This document shows, one piece after another, positions 4,739-57,040 of a stretch of 64,000 nucleotides of DNA (its first letter is position 1; each line of letters begins with the position of its first letter). Source of the DNA: an uncultured Clostridia bacterium. GTDB lineage: Bacteria > Bacillota > Clostridia > TANB77 > CAG-508. The stretch is taken from positions 4,786-68,785 of the forward strand of contig CAKPRA010000004.1 of the NCBI GenBank assembly GCA_934180065.1, in the 5' to 3' direction. A program made the position numbers and the translations under genes. The notes under the pieces are model-generated. The model ran no database searches. It had not been told where the DNA came from and saw nothing but the letters and a program-made list of their open reading frames with translations.

Positions 4739-4741
4739 TGC

Positions 4742-16897: not shown

Positions 16898-17073
16898 GGA
16901 AAAGGGGACGGTTCTCTTTTCCCAGATTTGGGAAATAGGGACACAGTCCAAAGCAAATGAGATACGCTTTTTTTCTGTAAAGGGAGAAATAGGGACAGTC
17001 TAGATTAAATGAAATACGCTTTTTTTGGCAAAATGGAGAAAGAAAATGGAAAAGAGAGCCGTCCCCTTTTCCC
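16898..17073. repeat. 176-bp MITE-like element whose terminal inverted repeats carry the REP core
   Basis: The left end is ggaaaaggggacggttctcttttccc and the right end is ggaaaagagagccgtccccttttccc, which is its reverse complement. An internal direct repeat reads aaatga(g/a)atacgcttttttt. Confidence 0.8.
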
Positions 17074-17097
17074 TTTTTGGAGGTTTTGTTATTCAAT

Positions 17098-36038: not shown

Positions 36039-39000
36039 ATGATTGATACTAAGGTTGCAAAATTATGGTCTTCCTTAAACAAAAAAAGCAAAGACATCGA
36101 AAATAAAATTGATACTTTGGTAAGAAAAAGAACAGGAAGTTATTATACGGATATAGAACTTACTGATGTTATGATGAATGAGTTAATAGAACAATTAAGA
36201 AATTCAAATTCATCAAAGAAACTTTGTGATTATAAATTTTTAGAACCTTGCATAGGTACTGGAAATTTCGTGTTTTCATATATTAAGACTATAGCTAAAA
36301 CAGGGCTTAGTAAAGAAGATGCTAAATGTATGTTGAATAATATTTATGTTGCAGATATAAATAAAGAGGCACTTAAAGGGTATAAAGAATCATTAAGTGA
36401 AATTGCATGGTTGTTTTGGAAGATAAAATTAACAAATGAATATTTTGAAAAACATATAGGAACAGGATTATTAATTGATGTAACAAAAGGTGAATTAAAT
36501 TATATTTCAATTAATGATGTATTTCAAGAAGATGTTATAAATGGAGGATTTGATATTGTTGCAACAAATCCACCATATAAAAATTTGAAAGCTGAACAAG
36601 GACAGTATAAAAGTGATGATGAATATGATAAAGATAAAGATAAATATTCAGTAATCTCAAAAATAGTAAAAAGAAATTTTAAATATTCAACTGATGGGGT
36701 ATTAAATTTATATAAATTGTTTGTTGAAGAAATAATTGATAAATATGCAAACAAAAACGCTTTTATTAGTTTATTGATTCCTGCATCAATAATGTCTGAT
36801 AAAACCTGTATGAAATTAAGAACACATATATTAGAGGATAATAAACTGATATCTGTAAAGGTAATTGAAGAAAACAACAAATATATAGATGCTCAACAAG
36901 CGTTATGTTCCGTTCTTATAAAAAAGGGAGAAAAAACTGATAATGTAAATATAACAAAAGATTACTGTAATGCACCAGGAGATATAGCAAAAGTAAAAAT
37001 TAAAGATATTTTAAATGTCAATACAGGAAATGCTATTATAGCGATTTCATCAAAAGAATATAATGTTTTGAATAAATTAAGAAAGTTCCCTGTAGTTAAA
37101 GATTTACCTTTTATTATAAATTTAAGGGGAGAGCTAGACTTAACTGCTAATAAGAAATATATAACAGAGAAGGATACTGGTTATTCATTGATTAGAGGAA
37201 GAAATATTGGTTATTATAATTTGATGAGTACTCCAAATGTTGAATTTGTTTCTAGTGATTTTATGAATATAACAAAGAAAAAATGTTACATTGAAAAAGA
37301 AAGAATCATATGTCAACAAATAGCAAATATGAACAAAGAACGACGAGTTGCATTTGCTTTAATTTCAAAAAATTACATATTAGGAAATTCATGTAATTTC
37401 ATTTCAGTAGAAGAAAATTCATATGGAATAGATATATATGCTATTTTGGGATTATTCAATACTAAAATTATAAATTGGTTATTCAAATTAACAAGTAGTA
37501 ATAATCATGTAAATAATTATGAAATAGACTGTTTTCCTGTTCCAGTGAAAGCTAAAGAATTAAAAGAAATATCAATTCTAACTCAGAAATATTTAAAAGA
37601 ACAAGATGAAAAAATTATTGAAGAAATAGAAAAATTAGCTAATATAGCATATGGTATAGAGAAAAACACTGAAGAGTATGCTGTAAATAAAAATGATGAT
37701 TATCTTAATGAATTTTTAACTGCAATTAGATATATTATACCTAAAATAACAAAAGAGAAAGCACAGAGCATTCTTGACGGTAAAGAAAAAATAGATTATT
37801 GTTTAGAGGGATTAAATAAATTTGAAAGAAACGTAGCAAAAGGAATAGCAGAAAAATATACGTTATTATTTCAAGGTAAATTACTAAATCACACTACATT
37901 TAAATTAAGTGACCTAGATCTCGAGATGATAAAAAATGTACCACAAGGGGGAAATTGGAAAGATATTCCGATGGAAACTGTCGAAAAATCTCAAAGATTA
38001 AAGCGTATAACTCAAACAGGAGGAAGAACTACATTATACGGAAGGATTGATTATGAAAAGCCAAGCTATACAATAACAACCTATTTTAACAGACCAGGTA
38101 ATGGGACATATGTTCATCCTGTTCATGAAAGGGTTTTATCTGTTAGAGAAGCAGCGAGATTTCAAGGATTTAAAGATGATTATTACTTTTATGGTAATAA
38201 AACACAATATTTAAAACAAATTGGAAATGCTGTGCCAACATTACTTGCTTATCAAATAGGCAGAGAAATAAAAGAAAAAACGGGTTGCTATAAATCAATT
38301 GATTTATTTTGTGGAGCTGGTGGAATGACTGCTGGTTTTAAAGCTGCGGGAATAAAATCTTTATTAAGTAATGATATTGAAGAAAGTGCTTGTACTACAT
38401 TAAAAATTAATAATCCAGAAATAAATGTTTTATGTGGAGATATTACAGGAAAAGAAACAAAGGATATTATTGAAAAAGCGGCACTTGCAGGAGAAGCAGA
38501 TATTATATGTGGTGGTCCACCATGTCAAGGTTTTTCTATGGCAGGTTTTAGATTAGAGAATGACCCTAGAAATCAGTTGTTTCGAGAGTTTGTTGATATA
38601 GTTAAAAGAGTAAGTCCAAAAGTTATTGTGTTTGAAAATGTAGAAGGATTATTAAGCTACCAAGGTGGAAAAACATATCGTGAAGTTCATACATTGTTTG
38701 GAGAACTTGGATATAATACAGAAGGTAGAACTTTAATTGCAAGTGAATATGCTGTACCACAAAAGCGAAAAAGGGTAATTATTATTTGCACTAGAAAAGA
38801 TATGCCTTTTTTTCCGGCTGATTTATTTCCAAAGGCTATAACTACTGAGGAAAAAAATCAAGTTACAGCGCGAGAAACAATATCAGATTTAGAAAATGTT
38901 TTATGCGATGAAAATGCAAGATATGTAGATGTTAATGAATCAGAGATTCTTGAATTTTTTAAGGGAGAAATTACATATGAAGAGTATATTAATTCAAAAT

Positions 39001-39071
39001 CTCATGAAGAGCAAAATCTAAAGATAGCAGCAGGACAATATGAACAAATTAGTTGCATGAATTTACTATAA
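36039..39071 (+). CDS. bifunctional DNA methyltransferase: an N-terminal N6-adenine MTase (NPPY) fused to a C-terminal, circularly permuted C5-cytosine MTase
   Basis: The N-terminal domain carries DIVATNPPY. The C-terminal half has RVLSVREAARFQGF...GNAVP (motifs IX/X) placed before IDLFCGAGG (I), GGPPCQGFS (IV), ENV (VI) and QKRKRVIII (VIII). Confidence 0.85.
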   Translation: MIDTKVAKLWSSLNKKSKDIENKIDTLVRKRTGSYYTDIELTDVMMNELIEQLRNSNSSKKLCDYKFLEPCIGTGNFVFSYIKTIAKTGLSKEDAKCMLNNIYVADINKEALKGYKESLSEIAWLFWKIKLTNEYFEKHIGTGLLIDVTKGELNYISINDVFQEDVINGGFDIVATNPPYKNLKAEQGQYKSDDEYDKDKDKYSVISKIVKRNFKYSTDGVLNLYKLFVEEIIDKYANKNAFISLLIPASIMSDKTCMKLRTHILEDNKLISVKVIEENNKYIDAQQALCSVLIKKGEKTDNVNITKDYCNAPGDIAKVKIKDILNVNTGNAIIAISSKEYNVLNKLRKFPVVKDLPFIINLRGELDLTANKKYITEKDTGYSLIRGRNIGYYNLMSTPNVEFVSSDFMNITKKKCYIEKERIICQQIANMNKERRVAFALISKNYILGNSCNFISVEENSYGIDIYAILGLFNTKIINWLFKLTSSNNHVNNYEIDCFPVPVKAKELKEISILTQKYLKEQDEKIIEEIEKLANIAYGIEKNTEEYAVNKNDDYLNEFLTAIRYIIPKITKEKAQSILDGKEKIDYCLEGLNKFERNVAKGIAEKYTLLFQGKLLNHTTFKLSDLDLEMIKNVPQGGNWKDIPMETVEKSQRLKRITQTGGRTTLYGRIDYEKPSYTITTYFNRPGNGTYVHPVHERVLSVREAARFQGFKDDYYFYGNKTQYLKQIGNAVPTLLAYQIGREIKEKTGCYKSIDLFCGAGGMTAGFKAAGIKSLLSNDIEESACTTLKINNPEINVLCGDITGKETKDIIEKAALAGEADIICGGPPCQGFSMAGFRLENDPRNQLFREFVDIVKRVSPKVIVFENVEGLLSYQGGKTYREVHTLFGELGYNTEGRTLIASEYAVPQKRKRVIIICTRKDMPFFPADLFPKAITTEEKNQVTARETISDLENVLCDENARYVDVNESEILEFFKGEITYEEYINSKSHEEQNLKIAAGQYEQISCMNLL

Positions 39072-39075
39072 TTTA

Positions 39076-39112
39076 AAAGAATGATTATCGATTTTTATGA
39101 TAATCATTCTTT
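39076..39112. terminator. bidirectional terminator between the convergent M and R genes
   Basis: aaaagaatgattatcgatttttatgataatcattctttt is a perfect hairpin. Confidence 0.7.
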
Positions 39113-39116
39113 TAAA

Positions 39117-40526
39117 TTATAGTATGTTTATTATTCTTTTTTCTATTTTTTCTATTAAACTAATTAATTTCTTTTTACAATAATCGGTTGATTTTCCTTG
39201 TTCAATATCAGTACATAGAGAATTAAGAATTTTTAATTCCTCAGGGTTTAAATAGTGTTTTCTGTTACGATTATCTTTTTCATTGTAATCATATACAGCT
39301 TCTATAGCAATTCGTTTATATCTTTCTGTTTCATTTTGATTTCTGCCGGTATAATGTCTATTAGTTTTACTAATAATATTACCTTTTTTATCAAAAGTAT
39401 AAGAATATTTAAAATATTCATAATTTGGTTCTAAAAATGCAGAAACAAGAAAATTTTCACCATTATTTGGGCAGGTTTCTAATATTGTTAGTAAAACATA
39501 CATAAAATTTGCCATATTTTGTTTTAATGCATCACGATATAGTGATGGTACTTTGTCTGGATTTGAAGAATAATTCTTTTTTATAAATTCCCAGATAAGT
39601 CTTGATTGCCAAGACATTGGATATATTCCTGTTCTTTTTTCTGTTTTTAATATATTTTCAATATCTATGATTTGTAAACGATCACGTTTCGAAGAATTAT
39701 CACTACTAGACATGGGCTGTAAATAATGTGAATCATGAACAAATCCAAGAGAAATAGGACCAATGTGGTCAGCAGATATACCGTCAAAAAAACTACTACC
39801 CATAAATTGATTAGCAGCATGAATATTTCCGTCACTCCAATATTCATATGCTCTTCTGTCTTTTGTATATGATTTTAGATTTATTTTTGAACGTCCTTTA
39901 TCTTGAGTAGCTCTGCAACAACGATTATATGTATGAAATCCATCAAAACGGTCTGGAAAATTTGACATTGCTCCTGGACCTAAACATTTTTTATTTCCTT
40001 TGCGACAAGCATATTCTAAATTTTCGATTATTTCATCCTTATTGGAAGTAGACGCATTTAATTTTAACTGTCCTTTGTTAATAAGAAATTCCGCAATTTC
40101 TATTTTTTTAATTCCTTGGTTTATTAATTCATCCCATATATCATTTATATTATCACAGCTAGAAAATTCATAATTGAATTTTTTGTTTAGTGATTTTAAA
40201 AAATTAGCATTTGGATAATGATAATATAAAGACATCTCTTTTCCGCAAATTTGACATACTTTCCATTTGGTTGGGTGTATTTCTAGCATAACATCAGCAT
40301 ACATTCCTGGATAATCTTTATCATCAGATATAAAATTTAATTCTTTAGCTTTAGAAATACACCAATTTTTGCGTTGTTTACCAATTTCTGACTGAGCTGT
40401 TGCAATCCAATTATAAGTTCCATCTGCCTTTTGTGTGATTGGTAATCCTTTGTAATTAGGATGATTTATAATCATTTCCATATATTTTTGAAATCTATGA
40501 TGCCATATTTTTTCTTCTATTGCCAT
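39117..40526 (-). CDS. putative restriction endonuclease (probably type IIS, HNH/Cys-rich)
   Basis: Convergent with the fused MTase, and immediately downstream of the C-protein gene, with translational coupling. Cys pairs CQIC and RCC are present. The likely start is MAIEEK, which has an RBS. Confidence 0.55.
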   Translation of the reverse strand: MAIEEKIWHHRFQKYMEMIINHPNYKGLPITQKADGTYNWIATAQSEIGKQRKNWCISKAKELNFISDDKDYPGMYADVMLEIHPTKWKVCQICGKEMSLYYHYPNANFLKSLNKKFNYEFSSCDNINDIWDELINQGIKKIEIAEFLINKGQLKLNASTSNKDEIIENLEYACRKGNKKCLGPGAMSNFPDRFDGFHTYNRCCRATQDKGRSKINLKSYTKDRRAYEYWSDGNIHAANQFMGSSFFDGISADHIGPISLGFVHDSHYLQPMSSSDNSSKRDRLQIIDIENILKTEKRTGIYPMSWQSRLIWEFIKKNYSSNPDKVPSLYRDALKQNMANFMYVLLTILETCPNNGENFLVSAFLEPNYEYFKYSYTFDKKGNIISKTNRHYTGRNQNETERYKRIAIEAVYDYNEKDNRNRKHYLNPEELKILNSLCTDIEQGKSTDYCKKKLISLIEKIEKRIINIL

Positions 40527-40527
40527 A

Positions 40528-40722
40528 TTATTCATCTCCTTCATTTTTTACAGTTTCTATTATATCTTTAAGAATACAATTTAGTGCTTCACATATTTTT
40601 AGAAGAACATCAGTTGTTACATTTGCACCTTTTCCAAGCTTTGCTATGGATGCAGGACTGATGTTTGCAATTTTTCCTAAATCTTGTTTATTTATTCCTT
40701 TATCAATTAATAATTTTTTCAT
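40528..40722 (-). CDS. controller (C) protein, HTH XRE family
   Basis: 64 aa. KQDLGKIANISPASIAKLGKG is an HTH. It sits just upstream of the REase gene on the same strand. Confidence 0.7.
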   Translation of the reverse strand: MKKLLIDKGINKQDLGKIANISPASIAKLGKGANVTTDVLLKICEALNCILKDIIETVKNEGDE

Positions 40723-41991: not shown

Positions 41992-42696
41992 ATGAAAGTA
42001 TTTTTACCGGATATTGTTGAGAAAAATGGCTCATTAAATTTGAGCTCATTGCCAATCGGACGTAACACAAGGTTTATTAGTGTTACAGGACAAGACGGCA
42101 GTGGAAAGACTAATCTTCGTGATGGTCTGGCAAAATATTTTTCAGAGCGGGAAAATGTTGTTATAACAGCTAAATCTCCATGTGATGCATATTTGGTAAA
42201 GTTGCTTAATAATGCAATTAGCCAAAACGGTTATGAAGATTGGTACACAGAGCAAATGTTGTTCAGCTTTGCAGATGGTTTGTTATCTAATTACATGAGA
42301 CAGTTAAACGGACATTGTGACTATTTCATTTGTCAGAGAGGTCCAATTGACCAGTATGCACATGGTGTAACTAGAAGCAGAAAGTCATATCAGACAATTT
42401 ACCAGTTTCAGAAGCCCGAAAGACTTGCAAAGTTTGATGTTTACATTCACATGAATTGTGAAGCAAAAGTTGCATGGGAAAGAGTTGCAAAAGATGAAGG
42501 TAAAGACAGGTATGAATACCCAGAGTACTTTGAACGTCAGGTAAAGAACACGGAGAAATTGTATCAAGATATTATGTCAGGGAAACATAAAGAGCTTGAC
42601 TTTTTAAGCGCAGCAAAACATATATATATTGATACAACAAATTTAACAATCGAGCAGACATTTGAAAAAGCCTTGACAGAATTGAAAATGACTTAA
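41992..42696 (+). CDS. P-loop nucleotide/nucleoside kinase-like protein (thymidylate-kinase fold); GC clearly higher than neighbours
   Basis: Walker A motif SVTGQDGSGKT. GC is visibly higher, at about 38% against about 25% in the flanks. Confidence 0.5.
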   Translation: MKVFLPDIVEKNGSLNLSSLPIGRNTRFISVTGQDGSGKTNLRDGLAKYFSERENVVITAKSPCDAYLVKLLNNAISQNGYEDWYTEQMLFSFADGLLSNYMRQLNGHCDYFICQRGPIDQYAHGVTRSRKSYQTIYQFQKPERLAKFDVYIHMNCEAKVAWERVAKDEGKDRYEYPEYFERQVKNTEKLYQDIMSGKHKELDFLSAAKHIYIDTTNLTIEQTFEKALTELKMT

Positions 42697-43056
42697 AAAA
42701 AATTGAGCTTCCATAAAATCAAAATTATGGTAGCTCTTTTTATATGTTAAATAAAGTAATAAGATTATAACACATAAAGAGAATAAATAATGTTCAGGAT
42801 AGTTTGATTGAATTTAGTGAAAACATATATTAAATGTTTAACTTTAACATGAGATGTATTTAAATCCGCTATATTCTACTTTTCCATTTTTAACTTGTAA
42901 AACTTATGTTTAAAATAAAAACAATGGTCAAAGCCATGCCGGTTGCTGAGATAAAAAGGTTGAAATAAATTCTGTTTTATAAATCATATCATTGATTTTG
43001 TAATCTTTTTAAGATATAATATCCGAATAAAATATAAGATACAGAAAGGGAATGAG

Positions 43057-44214
43057 ATGAATTATAAAGATATAATATTACCAAACTATGACTATTGTAT
43101 ACATAATACAATAACATCAATTTTAAAAAATTATGATGTAAAAACAAATAATAAATCATTAGAAACATTAGATGAAGTATTTAAGGCAAAAGATTACAAA
43201 AATGTTATTTTCTTAATTTTGGATGGTTTAGGAGAGCATATTTTAGAAAAAGTTTCTCCAGATGGATTCTTTTCTAAAAATAAGATAGATTGTGTTACCT
43301 CTGTATGCCCATCAACAACCACTGCAGCTCTTCCAGTATATTATTCAGGTAAGGTACCATATGAAACTGGATGGATAGGGTGGTCTCAATATTTTAAAGA
43401 ATATGGAAGATCATTAGATATGTTTACACATAAAGAATCTTACCTTGGAAACTATTTAAAAAATCCCATCAAAAATATGTTTGAAGAGGAGCTTAACTAT
43501 GAATCAATTTTTTATCAAATTGAAAAAGCTTCTCCAAATGTAAGAGCAATTGAGGTTCAGCCACAATATGCTGAGCAAATGGCGAAAAGAAGTGTGAGAG
43601 CAAATAATTTAGATGAGATTGAAACTGCAATTTATGATATATGCTCTATGCCGGGAAAGAATTTTATAGTCGCATATTCAGATAATCCAGATGGATTATT
43701 GCATAAATACGGAACAGATTCGCAAGAAGCCAAAGAATTCATAAAAGATGCCGAAAAAAGAATACAGAAAATTAGAGCAAATTTAGATGAAGAAACATTA
43801 ATAATTATTTCAGCAGATCATGGACATAAAAATATAGAAAAAGCATATTCAATAATTAATTATCCAGAAATAATGGAATGCCTTATAATTCCACCAACTC
43901 TAGAATCTAGAGCATTGAGTTTTTGGGTAAAAGATGAAATGAAAGATGAATTTGTAAAAAGATTTAATAAAGAATTTGAAAAAGAGTTTTGGTTAATGAG
44001 TAAAGATGAGTTCCTAAATAAATATAAAATGCTTGGAACTGGAGAAAAGCATAAAAAGATAGATGATTTCATTGGGAATTTTGTGGCTTTATCTGTTGGA
44101 AGTAGTATTATTAGAATTGAAACATTTTTAGCAGAAGGAAAACCTGTAAAAAAATCTACACATTGTGGTCTAACAAAAGACGAAATGGAAGTTCCGGTAA
44201 TAGTTTTAAAATAA
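43057..44214 (+). CDS. alkaline-phosphatase-superfamily metalloenzyme (phosphodiesterase / phosphomutase-like)
   Basis: FLILDGLG, the CPSTTT nucleophile region, and SADHGH metal-binding motifs. Confidence 0.55.
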   Translation: MNYKDIILPNYDYCIHNTITSILKNYDVKTNNKSLETLDEVFKAKDYKNVIFLILDGLGEHILEKVSPDGFFSKNKIDCVTSVCPSTTTAALPVYYSGKVPYETGWIGWSQYFKEYGRSLDMFTHKESYLGNYLKNPIKNMFEEELNYESIFYQIEKASPNVRAIEVQPQYAEQMAKRSVRANNLDEIETAIYDICSMPGKNFIVAYSDNPDGLLHKYGTDSQEAKEFIKDAEKRIQKIRANLDEETLIIISADHGHKNIEKAYSIINYPEIMECLIIPPTLESRALSFWVKDEMKDEFVKRFNKEFEKEFWLMSKDEFLNKYKMLGTGEKHKKIDDFIGNFVALSVGSSIIRIETFLAEGKPVKKSTHCGLTKDEMEVPVIVLK

Positions 44215-45968: not shown

Positions 45969-47351
45969 ATGGTAGATTCAATGGAAAAAATTGTAAGTTT
46001 ATGCAAAAACAGAGGATTTATATATCCTGGTTCAGAAATTTATGGAGGTCTAGCTAATACTTGGGATTACGGTCCTTTAGGTTCAGAGCTTAAAAACAAC
46101 GTAAAAAAAGCATGGCAAAAGAAATTTATACAAGAATGTAAATACAATGTAGGATTAGATGCTGCAATATTTATGAATCCTGAAACTTGGGTTGCAACAG
46201 GACATGTTGGAGGTTTTAGTGATCCATTAATAGATTGTAAAGAATGTAAAACAAGACATAGAGCAGATAAATTAATAGAAGAATGGGCAACACAAAATGG
46301 TCAAGATTTAGTTGCTGATGGTTGGTCTGATGAAGAAATGATTAAATTTATGGATGATCACAATATAAATTGTCCGAACTGTGGAAAACACAATTTTACA
46401 GGAATTCGTAAATTCAATTTAATGTTCAAAACATTCCAAGGTGTAACAGAAGATTCAACATCACAAATATATTTAAGACCAGAAACAGCACAAGGTATAT
46501 TTGTAAATTTCAAAAATGTAATGAGAACTACAAGAAGAAAATTACCAACAGGTATAGCTCAAATTGGTAAGGCTTTCAGAAATGAAATAACACCAGGTAA
46601 CTTTACATTTAGAACTCGTGAGTTTGAACAAATGGAATTAGAATTTTTCTGTAAACCAGGTTCAGATGAAGAATGGTTCAAATATTGGGAAGAATTCTGC
46701 AAAAACTGGTTATTATCACTTGGAATGGACGAGAACAACATTCGTCTAAGACAACATAGTAAAGAGGAGCTTGTTTTCTATAGCAAAGGAACAACAGACA
46801 TAGAATTCAAATTCCCATTTGGTTGGGGAGAGCTATGGGGAATAGCTGATAGAACAAATTATGATTTATTAAGACATATGGAACATTCAAAACAAGATTT
46901 ATCATACTTAGATCCAGAAACAAATGAAAAATATATACCATATGTAATAGAGCCATCACTAGGATGCGATAGAGCTACACTTGCATTTTTATGTAACAGC
47001 TATGAAGAAGAAGAAATTGCAGAAGGTGACACAAGAACAGTATTACATTTACATCCAGCATTAGCACCATACAAAGTTGCTGTACTTCCACTATCTAAAA
47101 AATTAAGTGAAAAAGCTATAGAAGTATATGAAAAATTATCAAAAGACTTCATGTGTGACTATGACGAAGCGGGAAGTATCGGAAAAAGATATAGAAGAGA
47201 AGACGAAATAGGAACACCATATTGTGTAACAATAGACTTTGATACATTAGAAGACAACCAAGTTACTGTAAGAGATAGAGATACAATGGAACAAGTTAGA
47301 ATTTCTATTGATGAATTAAATAATTGGATAAAAAATAAAATAGAATTTTAA
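45969..47351 (+). CDS. glyQS: glycine--tRNA ligase (homodimeric class II type)
   Basis: [21 protein letters not shown], and [10 protein letters not shown] (motif 2). 460 aa. Confidence 0.9.
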
Positions 47352-47444: not shown

Positions 47445-48308
47445 ATGAAGAGAAAATTTATACTAATAATAAGTGTAATAATAATTCTAATTATATCTGT
47501 ATGTGTTTTATTATTAAATAAAAGCAAAGAAGTTGCAAAAAATAGTGATGAAATATATATAAACGTTGAAAATGAGTTTATGGCTGAAAATACTAATAAT
47601 GTTACAAATAATATAATATCAGAAAAAAATGAAGAAAAAACGATTAGTACTGCAAGTAATGAGCAAAAAGTAGATAAAAATGTTAATCAAAATAACGTTG
47701 ATGTAAATAAAAAAGTAGAAAAAACAGAAAATAAAAATCAAACAAGCTCAAACAGCAATATTAGTAAAGAAAATAATGCACCAACTGGTAAAACTACATA
47801 TTATATCAAGGTAAATTATGGAGCTAATGCAGTTACTATATACAAAAAAGATGAAAACGGTTATTACACAGTTCCAGTAAAGGCAATGATTTGTTCATGT
47901 GGAACTGCAACACCGAAAAGTGGTGTTTATAAAACATCTAAGGGATATGAATGGGGAACTTTAGAAGGAGGAACATATGGTAGGTATTCTACTAGAATAA
48001 AGGGTGGCATTTTATTTCACTCTGTTCCATATGTGTCAGAAAGTGAGGATTCATTAGAATATTGGGAATATGATAAATTAGGAACGACAGCATCTTTAGG
48101 TTGTGTTAGACTTGCAGTGGCTGATTCAAAATGGATATTTGATAATTGTGAAGTTGGAACTCAAGTCGAGTTTTATTCAGATACAAATCCAGGACCACTA
48201 GGAAAACCAACTGCCCAAAAAATATCTGATAATGAGAAATGTAGAAATTGGGATCCAACAGATACTTCTCCAAATAGCCCATGGGTCAATGGGGACGGTT
48301 CTCTTTGA
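47445..48308 (+). CDS. L,D-transpeptidase (YkuD domain). The last 8 codons are encoded by a REP
   Basis: HSVPY....SLGCVRL catalytic motif. The tail WVNGDGSL comes from gggtcaatggggacggttctctttga. Confidence 0.75.
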   Translation: MKRKFILIISVIIILIISVCVLLLNKSKEVAKNSDEIYINVENEFMAENTNNVTNNIISEKNEEKTISTASNEQKVDKNVNQNNVDVNKKVEKTENKNQTSSNSNISKENNAPTGKTTYYIKVNYGANAVTIYKKDENGYYTVPVKAMICSCGTATPKSGVYKTSKGYEWGTLEGGTYGRYSTRIKGGILFHSVPYVSESEDSLEYWEYDKLGTTASLGCVRLAVADSKWIFDNCEVGTQVEFYSDTNPGPLGKPTAQKISDNEKCRNWDPTDTSPNSPWVNGDGSL

Positions 48309-48311
48309 CAA
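48285..48311 (+). repeat. REP-like element
   Basis: gtcaatggggacggttctctttgacaa. Confidence 0.85.
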
Positions 48312-48574
48312 CCACAAAAAAATACAGAATTTTTCTGTATTTTTTTTGCATGAAACGGAACATAAACAGTTGACACACTGAAAGTTATTTTGGAATTATG
48401 GAAAGTAAGTAAAAGGAAAAAAATAAGGAAGAAACGGGAAAGTGTTGAAGCAATTGACAATATTGAATTGGGAAAAATTACATAATTGTACTTGACATAA
48501 TTATTGATAATATGCTATACTTTATTCAGATGTTTCGAAAGAAACATACTTTGTACTAAGGAGGTCGAAAGACC

Positions 48575-48822: not shown

Positions 48823-48853
48823 CGTTAACTTAAATGGTAAACCAGGATTATGG

Positions 48854-48880
48854 GTCAATGGGGACGGTTCTCTTTGACAA
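48854..48880 (+). repeat. REP-like element
   Basis: gtcaatggggacggttctctttgacaa. Identical to the copy at 48285. Confidence 0.85.
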
Positions 48881-49199
48881 CAATAAAAAAACTACAGAAT
48901 TTTCCTGTATTTTTTTGTTGCATGGAACAAAACATAAACAGTTGACGCACTGAAGATTATTTCCTTATTATGGAAAGTAAATAAAAAGAAAAGATGAAGG
49001 AAGAAACAGATACGGTTCTTGCAAGTGTTTGCAAGGAACCTTAAATCACTTAATAAATAAAAGAGTTGAAGCAATTGACTTTGAGCGATTAGAAGGAAAG
49101 TGCATAAAATTACTTGACATATACACAGTAAATGGTGATAGAATTATGATATATCAAACTGAAATGGTGCAATAAAATTTTATGAGGAGAATATAAATC

Positions 49200-50279
49200 A
49201 TGGAAAGTTTAAAGGAATATAGACCTAGTATAATTAATAAACTAAAATTATTTCTAAGCAGAATTGAACAAAGAAAAACAATTGAAAAAAATTTAGATAA
49301 ATTAGATATCAGTTTATTTTCTTCCAATAATATTGATTATATAATACAAAATAAAGAAAAATTTAAAAGTACAAGTGGTATGCCAGATCCACAAAAAGAA
49401 ATTATGACTATTGAAGATAAACTTGGAATAGTAATGGACTTTTTCAATGATTTAAATTCTAGTTTAGGGAAAAAAGTTAAAGATACATATTTAAAATATA
49501 AAACGCAAATTTATTTTGATGAGTGCAGTGATAAAAATAAAGAAATTGGTGATGGTTTCACTAGCGGACATAATAGAAGTACATCCATTATGTGTGGCGA
49601 TGGTATTGAAAGACCAAATCTTATAGCAAGAATTTGTACCAATAAAAATAATGCACTAGATATATATAATATAGCTCACGAATTCACACATATATTGCTA
49701 AACGAAAATACTAAAGAAAAAAACATTAGTGCTGAAAACCAAGAAATTGCAACTAGATTTACAGAAATCTTGTTGGGCGAATATATGGAAAAAAGAAAAA
49801 TTATCACAACAGAAGACAAAGAAAATCACAACATATGTATATCAGGCGAAATAGATAAAGCATATCAGCTCAATGAATATAGAATTTTAAGAAACCTAAT
49901 TAAAAACAATGGAAATAAATTTGATAAGAAATTAGAAAAAACATGTATTTCTAAATATTGCAAAGGAAATAAAAACTGGTATTACCAAATATTATCAAAC
50001 ATAGCATATAGATTAGAAAGAACCGGCAAAGTAGACGGTTTTCAAAATTACTTAAGATTTGTTAATTCAGCAGCAGAATGTGATAAATTAAAACAAGCAT
50101 ATATTGAAAATCCCGATTTAATAAAAAAAGCTTTTTCTCAATGTTTAATGAGTCAGCATAGTATTACGTACAATGATGTAGTGAAAAAGAGGTCAATGGG
50201 GACGGTTCTTTTTGACACAAAAAACATTGACGTTTTACAGCAAGTAAAGAAAAAAGATACATACGAAATTACTCATTAA
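49200..50279 (+). CDS. hypothetical protein with an HExxH motif (putative zinc metallopeptidase). An in-frame REP insertion lies near the C-terminus
   Basis: HEFTH motif. A REP at 50192-50219 is translated as RSMGTVLFDT. Confidence 0.45.
   Translation: MESLKEYRPSIINKLKLFLSRIEQRKTIEKNLDKLDISLFSSNNIDYIIQNKEKFKSTSGMPDPQKEIMTIEDKLGIVMDFFNDLNSSLGKKVKDTYLKYKTQIYFDECSDKNKEIGDGFTSGHNRSTSIMCGDGIERPNLIARICTNKNNALDIYNIAHEFTHILLNENTKEKNISAENQEIATRFTEILLGEYMEKRKIITTEDKENHNICISGEIDKAYQLNEYRILRNLIKNNGNKFDKKLEKTCISKYCKGNKNWYYQILSNIAYRLERTGKVDGFQNYLRFVNSAAECDKLKQAYIENPDLIKKAFSQCLMSQHSITYNDVVKKRSMGTVLFDTKNIDVLQQVKKKDTYEITH
50192..50219 (+). repeat. REP-like element inside a coding sequence
   Basis: gtcaatggggacggttctttttgacaca. 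Confidence 0.85.
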
Positions 50280-50994: not shown

Positions 50995-51033
50995 GTCAAT
51001 AGGTGTCAATAGGGGACGGTTCTTTTTGACACA
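50995..51033 (+). repeat. REP-like element (partial copy plus full copy)
   Basis: gtcaataggtgtcaataggggacggttctttttgacaca. Confidence 0.8.
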
Positions 51034-51061
51034 AAAACATTGCCATTTTTACATCAAAAAT

Positions 51062-51322
51062 AAAGAAAAAGCTAAATACATACGTAAAAATTCAACCTAA
51101 AAGCTATTGTATATCCTTCTGATTGTTTCTCTTCCTATATTTAATTCTTTTGAAATTCATGGATGAAGCACCAATTTTTTTATACCTCGCTTTCAGTTTT
51201 TTTACATAGCGCTCTGAAAAATTCAACCTGTTTGCTGCAACTTTGATAGTCATAGTTCCAGTAATACAACTTTGTATTACTGCTTTTTTTAATTCTTCTT
51301 TTTTATTCATAACAGTTCTCAT
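51062..51322 (-). pseudogene. remnant of a REP-associated tyrosine transposase copy (3' end duplicated from 52131-52230 but frameshifted), with an HTH N-terminal part
   Basis: DNA 51066-51160 is about 95% identical to 52136-52230, which is the 3' end of the RAYT gene plus downstream sequence. The reading frame differs. An HTH-like segment VAANRLNFSERYVKKLKARY is present. Confidence 0.5.
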
Positions 51323-52003: not shown

Positions 52004-52077
52004 TTAAAACCTACTGTCATCTACAGAAAAAGGTTGCAAAAAAAGTCCCTCTCATTTGGGGACTTTTTTGTTGCTCT

Positions 52078-52105
52078 GTCAATGGGGACGGTTCTTTTTG
52101 ACACA
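52078..52105 (+). repeat. REP-like element flanking the 3' side of the RAYT gene
   Basis: gtcaatggggacggttctttttgacaca. Confidence 0.85.
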
Positions 52106-52168
52106 AAAACATTGCCATTCTTACATCAAGAATAAATAAAAAGCTAAATACATACGTAAAAATTCAAC

Positions 52169-52873
52169 CTAAGAGCTATTGTATAGCCTTCTAATTGTTT
52201 CTCTTCCTATATTTAATTCTTTTGAAATATTTCTTAAAGAAATATGTTTTTTATCTTTCAATAATCTTATAAGATCCGATAAAATAATTTTATTATTTTT
52301 TAATTCTGAAGTATCTATATGATATTCCTCTAAAAATTTTCTAATAAAATCTTTGCACTCAGTATTATTATTTTTATCATCATCCACATCGATAAAGACA
52401 TATTCATCATCCAAATCTTTATTATTTAAATCCTTATTGAATTTTTTATAATTTGAATAAGGATAATCTTCGGCTTTTTGGCAAATACCAGCTTTTACAG
52501 GATTATTAAAGATATAATTTATGCAATTATATAAGTGTTTCTTACTGTAGATTCCTTCAGCCTTATATCTATCTCGAAAAACATAGCCTACTCTATTGTA
52601 TTTTTTATTATAGTACATACTATATCGTATGTTAAGACGTTGCATGTATTTGCTAAGATCTTTTAAACTATTGGATTCAATTAAAATATGTGTATGATTA
52701 TTCATAATACAATAAGCAATTATATTAATTTTATGTTCAGTAAGTAAATCATACATTATTTTTATATAATACTTAATATCTTGTGTTTCATCAAAAATAT
52801 AGCTTTTATTAATTCCTTGGGTAATAATATGAAAAAAAGATGTTTGAATAAAACTTCTTGGTTGTCTTGGCAT
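52169..52873 (-). mobile_element. REP-associated tyrosine transposase (RAYT, IS200/IS605 TnpA-like Y1 HUH enzyme) with a C-terminal HTH
   Basis: HuH motif HTHILIE. Catalytic Tyr region YIFNNPVKAG. The C-terminal part LRNISKELNIGRETIRRL is an HTH. The gene is bracketed by inverted REP copies at 52078-52105 and 52985-53013. Confidence 0.75.
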
Positions 52874-52984
52874 AAAATCTCCTAAATATTGTGAAATAAA
52901 ATTATATATATAATATCATAAGAATAATAAAAAAAATGTCGAAATGTGCTTTACTACATAATTTTTTGGAATTAATAGACAAAG

Positions 52985-53013
52985 TTGTCAAAAAGTTCCG
53001 TCCCCATTGACAT
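52985..53013 (-). repeat. REP-like element (reverse orientation) flanking the 5' side of the RAYT gene. It carries the TTGACA used as the ppdK -35
   Basis: ttgtcaaaaagttccgtccccattgacat. Confidence 0.85.
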
Positions 53014-53040
53014 ATTTTTTTGATTTTATGTTATAATAAT
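53006..53040 (+). promoter_or_regulatory. sigma-A-type promoter of ppdK (TTGACA-N18-TTATAAT), with the -35 contributed by the REP end
   Basis: ttgacatatttttttgattttatgttataat, followed by an RBS (aaggagg) and the ATG at 53083. Confidence 0.55.
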
Positions 53041-53082: not shown

Positions 53083-55707
53083 ATGAATAAAAAATATGTA
53101 TATCTTTTTAAAGAAGGTAATGCAAGTATGAAAGAGCTACTTGGCGGAAAAGGTGCCAATTTAGCTGAAATGACATCTTTAGGGATGCCAATACCTCAAG
53201 GTTTTACAATTACAACAGAGGCTTGTAACAAATATTATGATGATGATGAACAAATTTCTAAAGAAATTTTAGAGCAAATAGATTCTGCTCTTATATATTT
53301 GGAGGATCATACAGGTAAAAAGCTTGGAAGTAAAGAAAAACCTTTATTAGTATCTGTAAGATCAGGGGCTAGAGCTTCTATGCCGGGTATGATGGATACT
53401 GTTTTAAATTTAGGTATGAATGATGAAGTTGTTCAGACTTTTGCCGAGAAAAATAGAAGATTTGCTTTTGATAGTTATAGAAGATTTATACAAATGTATA
53501 GTGATGTTGTTAAGGAAATACCTAAAAAATTATTTGAAGATGCTATTGATACTAAAAAACAACAAAGAAATTTGAAATTAGATACTGATATGGATGCTAA
53601 TGACTTGGAAGATTTGGTAAAAGTATTTAAAGGGATTTATAGAGATTATCTACATGAAGAATTTCCACAAGATACTAAATTACAATTAATTGAATCTATT
53701 AAGGCTGTATTTAGATCTTGGAATAATCCAAGAGCAATCACATATAGAAAATTGAATGATATACCATCTGATTGGGGAACTGCTGTTAATATACAAGCGA
53801 TGGTATTTGGTAATATGGGAGAAGATTGTGGTACAGGTGTTGCTTTTTCTAGAAATCCAATTAATGGTAAAAAAGAGGTTTTTGGAGAATTTTTAATGAA
53901 TGCACAAGGTGAAGACGTTGTTGCTGGTATACGTACTCCTCAGTCTATTGATACTTTAAAATATATTAATAAACAAGCATATGATGAATTTGTTAAATTT
54001 GCTGATAGATTGGAAAAACATTATAAAGATATGCAAGATATGGAATTTACTATTGAGCATGGTAAATTATATATGTTACAAACAAGAAATGCTAAACGTA
54101 CAGCAGTTGCAGCTTTAAAAGTTGCTGTAGACTTAGTTTTAGAGGGAATGATTGATGAAAAAGAAGCTGTGCTAAGAGTTGAGCCAAACCAATTAGAGCA
54201 ATTGCTACACCCTAACTTTAATCAAGAAGCTCTTAAAAAGGCTAAACCTATAGCTAAAGGATTACCTGCATCTCCAGGTGCTGCTACAGGTAAAGTTGTT
54301 TTTACTGCAGATAAAGCTAAAGAGCTTAAAGAAGCGGGAGAAAAAGAGCTTGTATTGGTTAGACTTGAAACATCACCAGAAGATATTGAAGGTATGGTTG
54401 TTTGTAGTGGTGTTCTTACAGTTAGAGGTGGAATGACTTCTCATGCAGCAGTTGTTGCTCGTGGTATGGGAACTTGTTGTGTTGCTGGCTGTGGAGAGCT
54501 TATTGTTAATGAGGATGAAAAGGTATTTTATACTAAAGATGGTAAAGCATTCCACGAAGGTGATTATATTTCTTTAGATGGATCTAATGGTAATGTTTAT
54601 GGAGAAAGAATTGATACTGTAGATGCATCTATTTCAGGTGATTTTGCAACTCTAATGGGTTGGGCTGATAGTATAAGAAAATTGAAAGTTAGAGCTAATG
54701 CTGATAATGTTAGAGATGCTCAAAAAGCCTATAATTTTGGAGCTGAAGGTATAGGATTATGCAGAACAGAACACATGTTCTTTGAGCCAGATAGAATTGC
54801 AGCTATTAGAGAAATGATAGTATCTAAAACACATGAACAAAGAGCTTGTGCACTTTCAAAAATACTTCCTATGCAAAGAGCTGACTTTGAAGGTTTATAT
54901 AGATCTATGAGAGGATATCCAGTTGTAATAAGATTATTGGATCCACCTCTTCATGAGTTTTTACCACATGATGATGAGGAAATTAAAGCTTTATCACAAG
55001 ATATGGGATTAAGTTTTGATGAACTTAAAGATATTGTAACTGACTTACATGAGTTTAATCCTATGATGGGTCATAGAGGTTGTAGACTTGATGTAACATT
55101 CCCTGAAATCGCTGAAATGCAAACAAGAGCTATTATAGAAGCAGCTATTAATGTATATAAAGAAGGAGTAAAAATTGTTCCAGAAATAATGATTCCTTTA
55201 ATAGGTGATGAAAAAGAGCTTAAATTTGTTAAAAATATTATAGTAAAAACCGCTGACGAAATCATTGAGAAATCTAATATTGATTTGAAGTATCAAGTAG
55301 GAACAATGATTGAAATACCTAGAGCTTGTTTAATAGCAGATGAAATTGCAAAAGAAGCGGAATTCTTCTCTTTTGGTACAAATGATTTAACACAGTTAAC
55401 TTATGGATTTAGCCGTGATGATGCTGGAAAATTCTTAAAAACTTATTATGAGAAAAAGATTTTTGAAAGTGATCCATTCCAAAAAGTTGATCAAATTGGG
55501 GTTGGTAAACTTATGAAAATGGCAATAGAAGATGCTAAAAAAGTTAGACCTAATATAGAGCTTGGAATATGTGGAGAGCATGGAGGAAATCCACCAACTG
55601 TAGAATTTTGTCATAATATAGGATTAACATATGTATCATGTTCACCTTTCCGTGTGCCAATAGCACGTTTGGCAGCAGCACAAGCAGCAGTTAAATTTGA
55701 AAAATAA
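53083..55707 (+). CDS. ppdK: pyruvate, phosphate dikinase
   Basis: 874 aa. The phosphohistidine region GGMTSHAAVVARG and the PEP-utilising domains are present. Confidence 0.95.
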   Translation: MNKKYVYLFKEGNASMKELLGGKGANLAEMTSLGMPIPQGFTITTEACNKYYDDDEQISKEILEQIDSALIYLEDHTGKKLGSKEKPLLVSVRSGARASMPGMMDTVLNLGMNDEVVQTFAEKNRRFAFDSYRRFIQMYSDVVKEIPKKLFEDAIDTKKQQRNLKLDTDMDANDLEDLVKVFKGIYRDYLHEEFPQDTKLQLIESIKAVFRSWNNPRAITYRKLNDIPSDWGTAVNIQAMVFGNMGEDCGTGVAFSRNPINGKKEVFGEFLMNAQGEDVVAGIRTPQSIDTLKYINKQAYDEFVKFADRLEKHYKDMQDMEFTIEHGKLYMLQTRNAKRTAVAALKVAVDLVLEGMIDEKEAVLRVEPNQLEQLLHPNFNQEALKKAKPIAKGLPASPGAATGKVVFTADKAKELKEAGEKELVLVRLETSPEDIEGMVVCSGVLTVRGGMTSHAAVVARGMGTCCVAGCGELIVNEDEKVFYTKDGKAFHEGDYISLDGSNGNVYGERIDTVDASISGDFATLMGWADSIRKLKVRANADNVRDAQKAYNFGAEGIGLCRTEHMFFEPDRIAAIREMIVSKTHEQRACALSKILPMQRADFEGLYRSMRGYPVVIRLLDPPLHEFLPHDDEEIKALSQDMGLSFDELKDIVTDLHEFNPMMGHRGCRLDVTFPEIAEMQTRAIIEAAINVYKEGVKIVPEIMIPLIGDEKELKFVKNIIVKTADEIIEKSNIDLKYQVGTMIEIPRACLIADEIAKEAEFFSFGTNDLTQLTYGFSRDDAGKFLKTYYEKKIFESDPFQKVDQIGVGKLMKMAIEDAKKVRPNIELGICGEHGGNPPTVEFCHNIGLTYVSCSPFRVPIARLAAAQAAVKFEK

Positions 55708-55710
55708 GGG

Positions 55711-55920
55711 GAGAAAGAAGAGCAAAGAAGAAAAAAGAAAAGAAAGGAAAAGACGGAAAAAGGAAGAGAAAGAGGAGGGAAAGAGGAGGGAAAAGGGGAC
55801 GGTTCTCATTGACAACCTTAAAAAAAGGTTGTCAATGAGAACCGTCCCCTTTTCCCTCCTCTTTCCTCCTCTTTCTCCTTCTTCCGCTTTTCTCTTCCGC
55901 TCTTTCTTTCTTCTTTCTGG
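55711..55920. repeat. roughly 210-bp imperfect palindrome: polypurine arm, REP core, ttaaaaaaa, REP core (reverse complement), polypyrimidine arm
   Basis: ggaaaaggggacggttctcattgacaacc ttaaaaaaa ggttgtcaatgagaaccgtccccttttcc. The flanks are aag/agg repeats on the left and their reverse complement on the right. Confidence 0.9.
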
Positions 55921-56017
55921 CACCCTCCAATTTTCCCAAAAAGTTTCATCACCATTGACATATTTTTTTGAATTAAATATAGAATTAAATATAGAAAGGT
56001 TTGGTGATGATTTTATA

Positions 56018-57040
56018 ATGAATAAATATAGAGTTGCTTTAGTTGGAACTACAGGTGTAGTTGGCAGAATTACAAGAAAAGTTTTAGAAGAGCATAATTT
56101 ACCTATAAGTGAATATAAATTGTTTTCTTCAAGTAAATCAGCTGGCTCAAAAATTGTTTTTGATGGTAGAGAATATGTAGTGGAAGAATTAAACGAACAT
56201 TCTTTCGATAATAATAAATTTGATTATGCTATTTTTACAGCAGGAGGCAAAGTGTCCGAAAAATATGCACCTTTGGCAGCACAAAACAAATGTACGGTGA
56301 TTGATAATAGTAGTTTTTTTAGAATGAATAAAGATGTTCCATTAATAGTTCCTGAAGTAAATATTGATGATATAGATAATAATAATGGGATTATAGCAAA
56401 TCCAAATTGCTCTACAATACAAGCTGTTGTTGCTTTAAGTCCGTTAGATAAAAAATATAAAATAAAAAGAATTGTTTATTCTACATATCAGGCTGTTTCT
56501 GGAGCTGGTTTGGGTGGAATACAAGATTTAGAATCTGGAATTGAAAATTATGTAGGTAACACCAAACATGAATTAAAGAAATTTCCGTATGAGATATTTA
56601 ATAATTGTATACCTCAAATAGATGATTTTGTTGATGATAGATATACTAAAGAAGAGCATAAGATGATTAATGAAACAAGAAAAATACTAAAAAAATCAAA
56701 TTTACCTATTACAGCTACTACTGTTAGAGTTCCTGTTTTTAATTCACATGCAGAATCTATTAACATTGAGTTTGAGAAGGATTTTGAAATAAATGATTTA
56801 ATTGATACATTAAAATGTGCTCCTGGAATTGTTGTTAAAGATGATATAACTAATAACATATATCCTATGCAAATTGATACTAACAATCAAGATAAAGTTT
56901 TTGTAGGAAGAATAAGAAGAGATTATAGTGTGAAGTCTGGAATTAATTTATGGGTTGTTGCTGATAATACAAGAAAAGGTGCTGGAAGTAATGCTGTTCA
57001 GATATTAGAATATCTAGTTAATAGAAATAGTAAAAAGTAA
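56018..57040 (+). CDS. asd: aspartate-semialdehyde dehydrogenase
   Basis: MNKYRVALVGTTGVVG. The catalytic Cys lies in NPNCSTIQ. Confidence 0.9.
   Translation: MNKYRVALVGTTGVVGRITRKVLEEHNLPISEYKLFSSSKSAGSKIVFDGREYVVEELNEHSFDNNKFDYAIFTAGGKVSEKYAPLAAQNKCTVIDNSSFFRMNKDVPLIVPEVNIDDIDNNNGIIANPNCSTIQAVVALSPLDKKYKIKRIVYSTYQAVSGAGLGGIQDLESGIENYVGNTKHELKKFPYEIFNNCIPQIDDFVDDRYTKEEHKMINETRKILKKSNLPITATTVRVPVFNSHAESINIEFEKDFEINDLIDTLKCAPGIVVKDDITNNIYPMQIDTNNQDKVFVGRIRRDYSVKSGINLWVVADNTRKGAGSNAVQILEYLVNRNSKK

Follow-up and report, generated by a model that had tools for sequence, protein, structure and literature searches.

We analysed a 64,000-nt stretch of DNA from an uncultured gut Clostridia bacterium (hereafter, the window), in which a palindrome at 55711-55920 separates ppdK, the gene for pyruvate, phosphate dikinase, from asd, the gene for aspartate-semialdehyde dehydrogenase. 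The cores of this palindrome are repetitive extragenic palindromic (REP) repeats, and the structure is best explained as a non-autonomous element resembling a REPIN (a REP doublet that forms a hairpin) or a dimer of terminal inverted repeats (TIRs), or as the relic of such an element, belonging to the Y1/HUH transposase encoded 2.8 kb upstream. We consider it probable that the palindrome is an inverted (head-to-head) doublet of the kind associated with REPs and REP-associated tyrosine transposases (RAYTs), hypervariable and devoid of a dedicated function. It would then represent a selfish-repeat architecture rather than a bespoke regulator, in an uncultured low-GC gut Clostridia lineage that carries a dense REP/RAYT-type system and shares its motif with high-GC Actinobacteria metagenome-assembled genomes (MAGs) and others.

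Anatomy and folding of the palindrome

The sequence reads as an earlier note on this DNA had described it, a 210-bp palindrome composed of REP cores and purine/pyrimidine arms, with tracts that can be followed from 55708. The purine tract starts at that position, directly after the ppdK stop codon (TAA, 55705-55707); 55708-55799 is 97% purine, with unbroken purine runs of 30 and 45 nt. The core GGGGACGGTTCTCATTGACAACC lies at 55795-55817 and its reverse complement at 55827-55849, with an AT-only centre between the cores (CCTT-AAAAA-AAGG), and a pyrimidine tract continues to 55920 (94% pyrimidine, longest run 41 nt). A repeat search delimited two inverted arms of 42 nt each, 5 nt apart and 100% complementary, which lengthen to ∼60 nt apiece when one 1-nt indel is allowed. 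The parts of the palindrome are the following:

55708-55794 (+): left outer arm, homopurine, with decayed 10-11-nt units (AAAGGAAAAG, 6 times; GGAAAGAGGAG, 3.5 times)
55778-55819 (+): left perfect arm, holding the REP core; a chimera of a GGAAAAG 5′ half (type B) and a CATTGAC 3′ half (type A)
55820-55824 (no strand): centre or loop, AAAAA in the window
55825-55866 (−): right perfect arm, holding the minus-strand REP core
55867-55920 (+): right outer arm, homopyrimidine (CCTCCTCTTT, 2.6 times; TCTTCCGCTCTTTC, 2.1 times)
55788 (no strand): polymorphic position (G/T), located 34 nt from the centre, as is 55856 (C/A), its exact counterpart in the stem

Each half of the palindrome reads GGAAAAG-GGGACGGTTCT-CATTGAC, that is, the 5′ stem half of a type-B REP joined to the 3′ stem half of a type-A REP. 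As single-stranded DNA (ssDNA), one half on its own does not fold (−0.7 kcal/mol, z = +1.1), and the two halves together form a perfect 42-bp stem (−53.7 kcal/mol, z = −18.5). Folding of 55700-55930 bore out the very stable hairpin that had been proposed, both as RNA (−141.4 kcal/mol, compared with −70.6 ± 4.8 for dinucleotide shuffles; z = −14.6, with 0 of 200 shuffles as good) and as ssDNA (−87.2 kcal/mol, z = −14.4).

The two arms had also been called near-perfect reverse complements. This holds for the inner ∼60 nt of each arm but not for the outer ∼50-70 nt, where 45 matches were found in 53 aligned columns, plus gaps, and the complementarity score of 42 lies only 2.5 standard deviations above composition-matched shuffles (28.9 ± 5.2), some of which score better. 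Because the excess over shuffles is so small, the outer pairing owes much to composition, a purine tract facing a pyrimidine tract. The same test with the right arm of a second strain (L206; contigs and loci from other assemblies are given L numbers) was not significant (46 versus 42 ± 6). In view of these two results, a true inverted duplication of 100 nt is not claimed. The left outer arm is interrupted by two C only, in the contexts GAG-C-AAA and AGA-C-GGA.

The REP family and its transposase

The proposal that the cores are REP-type repeats was confirmed by an abundant repeat family and by a flanked Y1/HUH (RAYT-type) transposase gene. The core has eight matches in the window at ≤3 mismatches (0.00 expected), and a Hamming scan with the 28-nt consensus GTCAATGGGGACGGTTCTCTTTGACAAC returned 18 copies in the 64 kb at ≤8 mismatches, about one per 3.5 kb. 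The copies sit between genes or at the 3′ ends of open reading frames (ORFs) and occur singly, in tandem (4663-4721; 10595-10693) or as inverted pairs (3505/3559; 16898/17045; 55789/55828). The transposase gene and the copies that matter most for the argument are these:

52169-52873 (−): gene for a Y1/HUH tyrosine transposase of RAYT/TIRYT type, 234 amino acids (Pfam, NCBIfam and alignment)
52984-53011 (−): REP upstream of the transposase gene, its ATTGACA end within the ppdK upstream region
52078-52105 (+): REP downstream of the transposase gene, inverted relative to the gene
16878-16922 (+): type-B REP with an abutting 31-nt purine run, left member of an inverted pair
17048-17077 (−): type-B REP, right member of the same pair (30-nt arms, 93% complementary, 125 nt apart)
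10683-10722 (+): partial tandem duplication of a REP stem half by a type-A REP (ATTGACCGCCA / ATTGACCACCA / ATTGACCGGCC, 11-nt period)

The transposase gene, 2.8 kb from the palindrome, is thus bracketed by inverted REPs. Its product carries the HUH motif at H60-x-H62, a conserved Tyr120 in Y-I-x-N-N-P-V-K-A-G and a C-terminal tail resembling a helix-turn-helix (HTH). It matches Pfam Y1_Tnp (PF01797) with 45.6 bits (cutoff 23), and the best NCBIfam model is REP_Tyr_transpos (NF047646, 'REP-associated tyrosine transposase'), with 78.4 bits against a cutoff of 80; the IS200 model reaches 17.9 bits. For the C-terminal HTH, Pfam gave sub-threshold matches only (residues 199-232; HTH_11, E = 0.0019, under the gathering score). 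In an alignment of seven homologues H60, H62, Y120 and N124 were invariant, and the HTH-like segment was present in six (clostridial, L124 and Actinobacteria-MAG) and absent from the Planctomycetales one. The exact 234-amino-acid protein occupies the same locus in all 23 contigs read, adjoining ppdK wherever the contig reaches.

A link between motif and transposase recurs in other lineages. When one genome per species was scanned for GAAAAGGGGACGGYTCTC, at least 116 loci were found, including Clostridia MAGs (25-30% GC), Actinobacteria and Propionibacteriaceae MAGs (70% GC), Aminicenantes, Planctomycetes, the candidate phyla radiation (CPR) and other lineages; the window's own species was not among the matches listed, the closest of which was L039 (79% DNA identity). 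A tblastn search with the window's transposase detected homologues in 7 of the 116 motif-centred loci listed, where ∼0.3 would be expected by a rough estimate. The motif stands on both sides of the transposase gene in L025, L095, L091 and L124, and likewise in two loci fetched via the protein, L217 (transposase 80% identical) and L219 (65%). In L219, the REP variant GGGGACGGAGA alters together with the protein. The related transposases with a flanking motif come from Clostridia and Actinobacteria MAGs of 27-72% GC.

Folding places the conserved block at the top of the hairpin, GGGGA-CGGT-TCTC(C). Among MAGs labelled Clostridia, Actinobacteria, Aminicenantes and Planctomycetes this apical motif is retained, and the basal stem, which differs by lineage, may drift with the GC content of the host: GTCAATG/CTTTGAC in the window, GGAAAAG/CTTTTCC in many Clostridia, and GGCCGAAAAGG/CCTTTTCGGCC or GGACG.../...CGTCC in Actinobacteria. 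Stem positions 3-7 show an in-register complementarity of 0.80-0.97, against mostly <0.2 when the register is shifted. Because the flanks are complementary in register and yet differ by lineage, this co-variation of the basal stem maintains a hairpin. Type-B and actinobacterial REP units fold at z = −5.3 and −6.9, respectively.

The tags of known REP families were searched for in the copies of the repeat. An unpaired GTAG at the 5′ end of the stem was found beside the stem in none of them, the conserved block being instead the apical GGGGACGGTTCTC. CGTC was not found as a terminal tag; its sole location is within the apical block, read on the opposite strand (GAACCGTCCCC). Rfam at the gathering threshold over the whole window gave nothing at the locus, neither an L-box/lysine riboswitch before asd nor a known REP-type family; at a permissive E-value, 55600-56100 returned sub-threshold matches to eukaryotic microRNA precursors and small nucleolar RNAs on both strands, which we regard as generic long-hairpin noise. 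A full-text literature search with the motif string returned no paper. A second nearby motif, GGGACAGTC, occurs in related elements.

REPINs are doublets of REPs that form hairpins and are mobilised by RAYTs (Bertels & Rainey 2011, PMC3116915; PMC3337134). The palindrome shares with them the inverted REPs with a short spacer that make one long hairpin, the single-locus Y1 transposase flanked by REPs, the extragenic and abundant repeats, and paired (compensatory) differences between the arms. Classical REPINs, however, are GTAG-tagged, proteobacterial and present as many near-identical doublets, whereas the present system has no GTAG tag and conserves the hairpin apex, its host belongs to 27%-GC gut Clostridia, and the doublet is unique among the sequences searched, with chimeric halves and with arms extended by ∼50-70 nt of purine/pyrimidine tract. 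The REPIN/RAYT literature deals with GTAG-tagged, mostly proteobacterial systems (PMC3116915, PMC2817692, PMC5581495); Firmicutes, Clostridia and Actinobacteria are not mentioned in Nunvar et al. (PMC2817692) or Di Nocera et al. (PMC3733652), and the Group 1 RAYTs that occur in Clostridia have flanking 16-mers of only modest abundance (Bertels et al. 2017, PMC5581495).

The best match in the literature is the TIRYT class. TIRYTs, with their TIRtrons, are longer RAYT-like proteins whose inverted flanking repeats share GGGGWSAS, with TIR families occurring as singles, dimers and clusters (Di Nocera et al. 2013, PMC3733652); they have been equated with TnpA_REP subclass 2.1, which combines Y1 with a C-terminal HTH and in whose vicinity no REP-like sequences were found (Quentin et al. 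2018, PMC6006769). Subclass 2.1, the second-largest TnpA_REP subclass, has HTH types that are Bac_DnaA_C, HTH_23 or HTH_28-like. The window's system shares the longer RAYT-like protein, a putative HTH-like C-terminal extension, the inverted GGGG-motif repeats (GGGGACGG agrees with GGGGWSAS at 7 of 8 positions, with G for A at position 7) and moderately abundant repeat families present as singles, dimers and clusters. It differs in that published TIRYT examples are mostly from Proteobacteria and Acidobacteria, while the flanking repeats here are REP-like hairpins with co-varying stems, one per 3.5 kb, and the subclass is likened by architecture, not by phylogeny. CGTC-tagged REPs have an unpaired CGTC at one end, a 4-5-nt loop, a CCA tail and no associated transposase (PMC3733652); here CGTC is not terminal and a transposase is associated. 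We therefore see in it a REP/RAYT-type system with two modest novelties: the REPs associated with this class are hairpins whose apex is conserved, and the long purine/pyrimidine arms of a palindrome would be built by arrays of half-REPs. By architecture, the transposase falls in a class without a previously reported REP-like partner.

In the E. coli REP system, with its bacterial interspersed mosaic elements (BIMEs) and TnpA_REP (RayT), reportedly treated by Ton-Hoang et al. and by Messing et al. in 2012, what the HUH/Y1 enzyme recognises is the folded ssDNA of a short repeat that forms an imperfect palindrome. Downstream of genes, E. coli REPs are clustered with alternating orientations, and they can influence both the stability of mRNA and termination. 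The window's system differs in its recognition motif, and no relative of solved structure was detected for it by sequence.

A more specific reading of the apex is speculative, and we rate it as rather improbable taken as a whole: the GGGGA-CGGT-TCTC(C) mini-hairpin would be the missing DNA partner of TnpA_REP subclass 2.1/TIRYT, the enzyme would cut at the apex after GGGGACGGT, and duplications of half a REP would be footprints of abortive strand transfer. If it were true, an HUH enzyme would be generating microsatellite-like tracts and long palindromes. The GGGGACGGTTCTC hairpin, the 234-amino-acid protein and the candidate cut site provide a testable substrate.

Several observations concern the REPs and the transposase unit more widely. 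A ∼155-nt segment is duplicated 1 kb away (51003-51157 versus 52075-52230, ∼95% identity); it joins a REP(+) through a 60-nt spacer to the final ∼60 nt of the transposase gene, and looks like the footprint of a past duplication or rearrangement of the unit. An ORF there, 51104-51322(−) (72 amino acids), was considered as a transposase fragment and rejected: BLASTP was not significant, and the likeness is at the DNA level only, with the REP and the gene's last ∼60 nt. In L217, the closest other species, the transposase unit stands directly beside a glycyl-tRNA synthetase gene, which in the window lies at 45969-47351, 5 kb from the transposase; the L219 neighbourhood is unrelated. Because neighbourhoods differ in these two species, the unit moves over longer timescales.

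The composite at 16893-17077 consists of inverted GGAAAAG-type REPs that enclose 125 nt with two direct repeats, each bearing a second motif, GGGAAATAGGGACA(C)AGTC, which matches the published TIRYT consensus GGGGWSAS better than the REP does. The arrangement of a REP followed by GGGACAGTCT is repeated across many related Clostridia loci (for example, L024, L097, L099, L102 and L106). Two copies of a module (48270-48480 and 48839-49075) contain a REP, a terminator hairpin (tacagaa...ctgta plus a T-run) and ∼100 nt including the purine-rich ggaaagtaagtaaaaggaaaaaaataaggaagaaac, so that the REP there forms part of a larger repeated unit. In the related Clostridia MAGs L022 (397-600), L038 (contig end) and L100 (2232-2419 and beyond), tandem arrays of 10 to >20 units of the 15-16-nt GGGGACGGAGATTTTC constitute a minisatellite of a variant of the apical REP motif.

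REPs also touch coding sequences and gene starts. Those at 48285-48312, 10595-10722 and 50192-50219 overlap long ORFs at their 3′ ends: 47445-48308, encoding a YkuD-domain protein, has its stop codon inside a REP, ORF 6954-10703 reads through three REPs and part of the 11-nt array, and ORF 49200-50279 through one. C-termini or stop codons seem to have been reshaped where REPs inserted. An identical 18-mer, ATTGACATATTTTTTTGA, is found at 53006-53023 and 55954-55971, upstream of ppdK and asd, respectively (0.00 expected). The ATTGAC of the ppdK copy is where the REP flanking the transposase gene ends, and the 18-mer includes a TTGACA −35-like hexamer, with non-canonical spacing to −10-like sequences. 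REP ends may thus donate promoter elements.

Origin of the arms and variation between strains

The purine and pyrimidine tracts of the palindrome occur where REPs of one kind occur. The window contains five purine/pyrimidine runs of ≥20 nt, four of which abut a GGAAAAG-type REP: three belong to the palindrome, and the fourth (16878-16908) adjoins the window's one further pair of GGAAAAG-type REPs. In low-GC relatives, the 30 nt 5′ of a GGAAAAG-type REP are ≥80% purine in 11% of cases, compared with 1.7% of background windows (p = 2e-7). Partial duplicates precede a full REP in L012 ((GGAAAAGGGGACGGTC)x3), L116 (GGCCGAAAAGGGGACGGT) and L219 (GTCAATGGGGACGGT), in each case with the breakpoint after GGGGACGGT, and in the window 11-nt units (ATTGACCRCCA) stand beside type-A REPs at ∼10683-10722 and, as a second example, at 4706-4745. 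This evidence was restricted to visually unambiguous cases, since a regular expression was over-permissive in high-GC loci. Partial duplications beside other REPs, in the window and in relatives, have a period of 10-16 nt, and units of the palindrome arms one of 10-13 nt, which the 11-nt period at 10683-10722 matches. Three of the four non-purine interruptions of the arms are a C followed by GGA, which fits the C-GG of the motif GGGGA-C-GGT, whose next base is T. Because of the positions of the runs, the purine enrichment, the partial duplicates, the unit period and the C-GGA interruptions, we infer that the arms arose as arrays in which the purine-rich 5′ half of a REP (GGAAAAGGGGACGG) was partially duplicated in tandem and which have since decayed.

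Strains were compared through contigs encoding identical PpdK, from several studies and assemblers (k141_ names denoting MEGAHIT, NODE_ names being SPAdes-style); their ppdK genes differ by 0-14 nt in 2,625 nt. The loop is A5 in the window and T5 (flipped) in L002; L006, L008 and L206 have one base fewer there, which makes the centre fully palindromic (CCTTTTAAAAGG). Positions 55788 and 55856 occur paired, as G:C and as T:A (L002, L007), and unpaired, as G/A and T/C (L004, L006). The left arm of L008 lacks 21 nt (55753-55773), and the right arm is 21 nt longer in L206 and L207 and ∼49 nt shorter in L006. This variation fits inversion of the centre by arm-arm recombination, arm-to-arm conversion and slippage. 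With a flipped loop, changes at partner positions and 21-49-nt indels next to near-identical ppdK genes, the recombination hotspot with length polymorphism that the earlier note had suggested is supported.

Long bacterial palindromes undergo SbcCD-dependent cleavage and arm-to-arm conversion and yield centre-asymmetric derivatives. The palindrome resembles them in being near-perfect with a tiny spacer, and in its centre changes and flips, its deletions between short direct repeats and its partner-position changes, with the difference that its instability is inferred from metagenome assemblies only. As a long palindrome that is polymorphic in nature, it could serve studies of hairpin instability in an anaerobe.

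A metagenome scan with the Asd protein found no contig of the same species; the best match, at 84% identity, was a sister species. There, a single REP(−) lies ∼95 nt upstream of asd, equivalent in position to the right perfect arm. The sister strains L132 and L138 have, in addition, a REP(+) 98 nt upstream of this one, and a canonical terminator hairpin is located between both REPs. By blastn, 55696-55976 of the window stands in place of 2.1 kb in L132, a segment that comprises the terminator-like hairpin of ppdK, a 73-amino-acid ORF, a 402-amino-acid gene (which we take, by eye, to be HD-domain dGTPase-like) and the REP pair with its 98-nt spacer. Because of this replacement, the palindrome lies at a rearrangement junction.

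Such a junction could have arisen by a one-off repair event, and among the alternatives this one survives best, although we hold it to be somewhat unlikely. A break or deletion beside the existing REP(−) upstream of asd would have been healed by fold-back (snap-back) priming, the REP and the pyrimidine tract being copied in inverted orientation, with no role for a transposase and an element that was never mobile. In keeping with this, the palindrome replaces 2.1 kb of the sister species, some strains have the spacer-less perfect centre that fold-back products would give, the arms reach well past the REP, and the doublet is unique in the set searched. However, inverted REP doublets are systematic in these genomes, which makes a family-specific process more economical; a single event should have left the outer arms uniformly alike, and these are not clearly homologous; and the sister state of L132 and L138 already has a REP(+)/REP(−) pair at the site. 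The repair scenario also concerns the origin of the palindrome only and is compatible with the REP/RAYT identity of its cores.

For the preferred explanation, a REP/RAYT-type element, the following sequence of events can be proposed. The purine-rich 5′ half of a REP would have been partially duplicated in tandem and would then have decayed into the purine/pyrimidine arms, and the REP with its tract would have become palindromic by inverted duplication or arm-to-arm conversion, at a site where, in the sister species, the two REPs are still apart and 2.1 kb more DNA is present. The element would persist as a hairpin- or cruciform-prone and slippage-prone locus, which would explain the rapid change between strains. 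Related genomes commonly contain inverted REP doublets (arms of 23-35 nt, spacers of 0-100 nt), and that of the window has the longest arms among all inspected (the window and ∼220 loci).

Several points weigh against this explanation. No second copy of the long-armed doublet was found in the window or the ∼220 loci, and there is no evidence in this set that the doublet replicates as a unit, the hallmark of an active REPIN. The window's type-A singlet REP is a weak hairpin (−2.7 kcal/mol, z = −0.45). The transposase scores just below its NCBIfam cutoff, and a PDB sequence search with it returned no relative of solved structure. Its homologues of 65-80% identity adjoin different genes in other species, and it may behave more like an insertion sequence than a domesticated RAYT. 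The origin of the arms by partial duplication is read from their pattern, with a statistically weak homology of the outer arms, and the strain comparisons rest on short-read metagenome assemblies, which may be chimeric at inverted repeats.

Flanking genes and functional readings

The palindrome is flanked by two genes:

53083-55707 (+): ppdK, pyruvate, phosphate dikinase (TIGR01828, 1392 bits), the upstream neighbour
56018-57040 (+): asd, aspartate-semialdehyde dehydrogenase (NF011456, 428 bits from residue 2), the downstream neighbour

The earlier note had suggested that the structure could act as a strong terminator or an insulator. A selected regulatory element, either a terminator/insulator parting ppdK from asd-dapA-dapB or a 3′ hairpin stabilising the mRNA, seems unlikely to us. 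Its position directly after the ppdK stop codon and the RNA hairpin of −141 kcal/mol would suit such a role; the interval from ppdK to asd showed no further terminator-like site, and the canonical terminator between the REPs at the equivalent place in the sister species implies that termination is needed hereabouts. E. coli REP/BIME sequences attenuate transcription and stabilise upstream mRNA. What comes after the stem, however, is a mixture of C and U that the predicted fold also pairs; there is no U-tract, and a terminator consensus scan did not call the palindrome, so that a strong intrinsic terminator is not supported. A duplex of 42-100 bp is far beyond what a terminator needs and would be an RNase III substrate, and the arms are hypervariable among near-identical strains rather than conserved. 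Because REPs downstream of genes elsewhere in the window are followed by separate canonical terminators (48313-48345, 48882-48915), the REP itself is presumably not relied on for termination. The scan for promoter-like sites, which are fewer than in shuffles (25, compared with 30.9), has no usable bearing on function.

The possibility of H-DNA, also raised earlier, found no backing: the tracts of 30, 45 and 41 nt are long enough, but their mirror-repeat symmetry is no better than expected from composition, with 18% (left) and 36% (right) of composition-matched shuffles as good. If ppdK transcription enters the hairpin, RNA polymerase pausing or attenuation and protection of the ppdK 3′ end would be expected to follow, as with E. 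coli REPs and not as at a canonical terminator. We conclude that any such effect on the ppdK mRNA, be it pausing or 3′ protection, would be incidental, and expect no dedicated cellular function.

An assembly artefact, a collapsed or chimeric hairpin made by the assembler, is very improbable. The window does match a MEGAHIT metagenome contig (L001, identical over ppdK, spacer and asd), and at least five contigs of other samples start or end inside the palindrome (L007, L008, L009, L206 and L207). However, six contigs (L001-L006) read through the spacer with the same architecture and the correct flanking genes, and they differ in sample, study and assembler style; since L001 may be the window's own source, the independent ones may number five. 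Differences between contigs are structured (partner positions, loop flip, unit-sized indels), and contig breaks are to be expected at a long inverted repeat with strain heterogeneity. The recurrence of the structure in independent MEGAHIT and SPAdes-style assemblies from several studies thus argues against the artefact that the earlier note had named as its refutation.

ORF callers do read straight through the palindrome, as had been noticed, giving the spurious ORFs 55642-55923(−), of 93 amino acids, and 55697-57040(+), of 447 amino acids, which runs in frame into asd. Public metagenome annotations (L001-L005) accordingly give Asd as 401 or 417 amino acids instead of 340, with 61-77 extra residues through the pyrimidine arm; it is called as 340 in L006, L206 and L207. 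These open frames and annotations speak for a protein-coding role, as an N-terminal extension of Asd or a 93-amino-acid minus-strand protein, a reading with practically no chance of being right: Asd family models match from residue 2 of the 340-residue form, strain indels are of 21, 1 and ∼49 nt (some frame-shifting), and the sequence is low-complexity purine/pyrimidine and not present in the sister species. The true start of asd is the ATG at 56018, not the read-through TTG at 55697. The palindrome explains both the mis-called Asd N-termini and the contig breaks in gut metagenome assemblies, an annotation and assembly hazard for this species.

Two further features of the window lie apart from the REP system. 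A lone Rfam CRISPR-DR3 match at 42836-42865(−) (44.7 bits, gathering score 41) stands between thymidylate-kinase-like and phosphodiesterase genes; with no array or second repeat visible in 42680-43070, it looks like an orphan CRISPR repeat. At 36039-40544, a restriction-modification pair consists of a gene for a 1,010-amino-acid fusion of Eco57I-type N6-adenine and C5-cytosine methyltransferase domains, convergent with the gene for a 475-amino-acid type II endonuclease of the Alw26I family.

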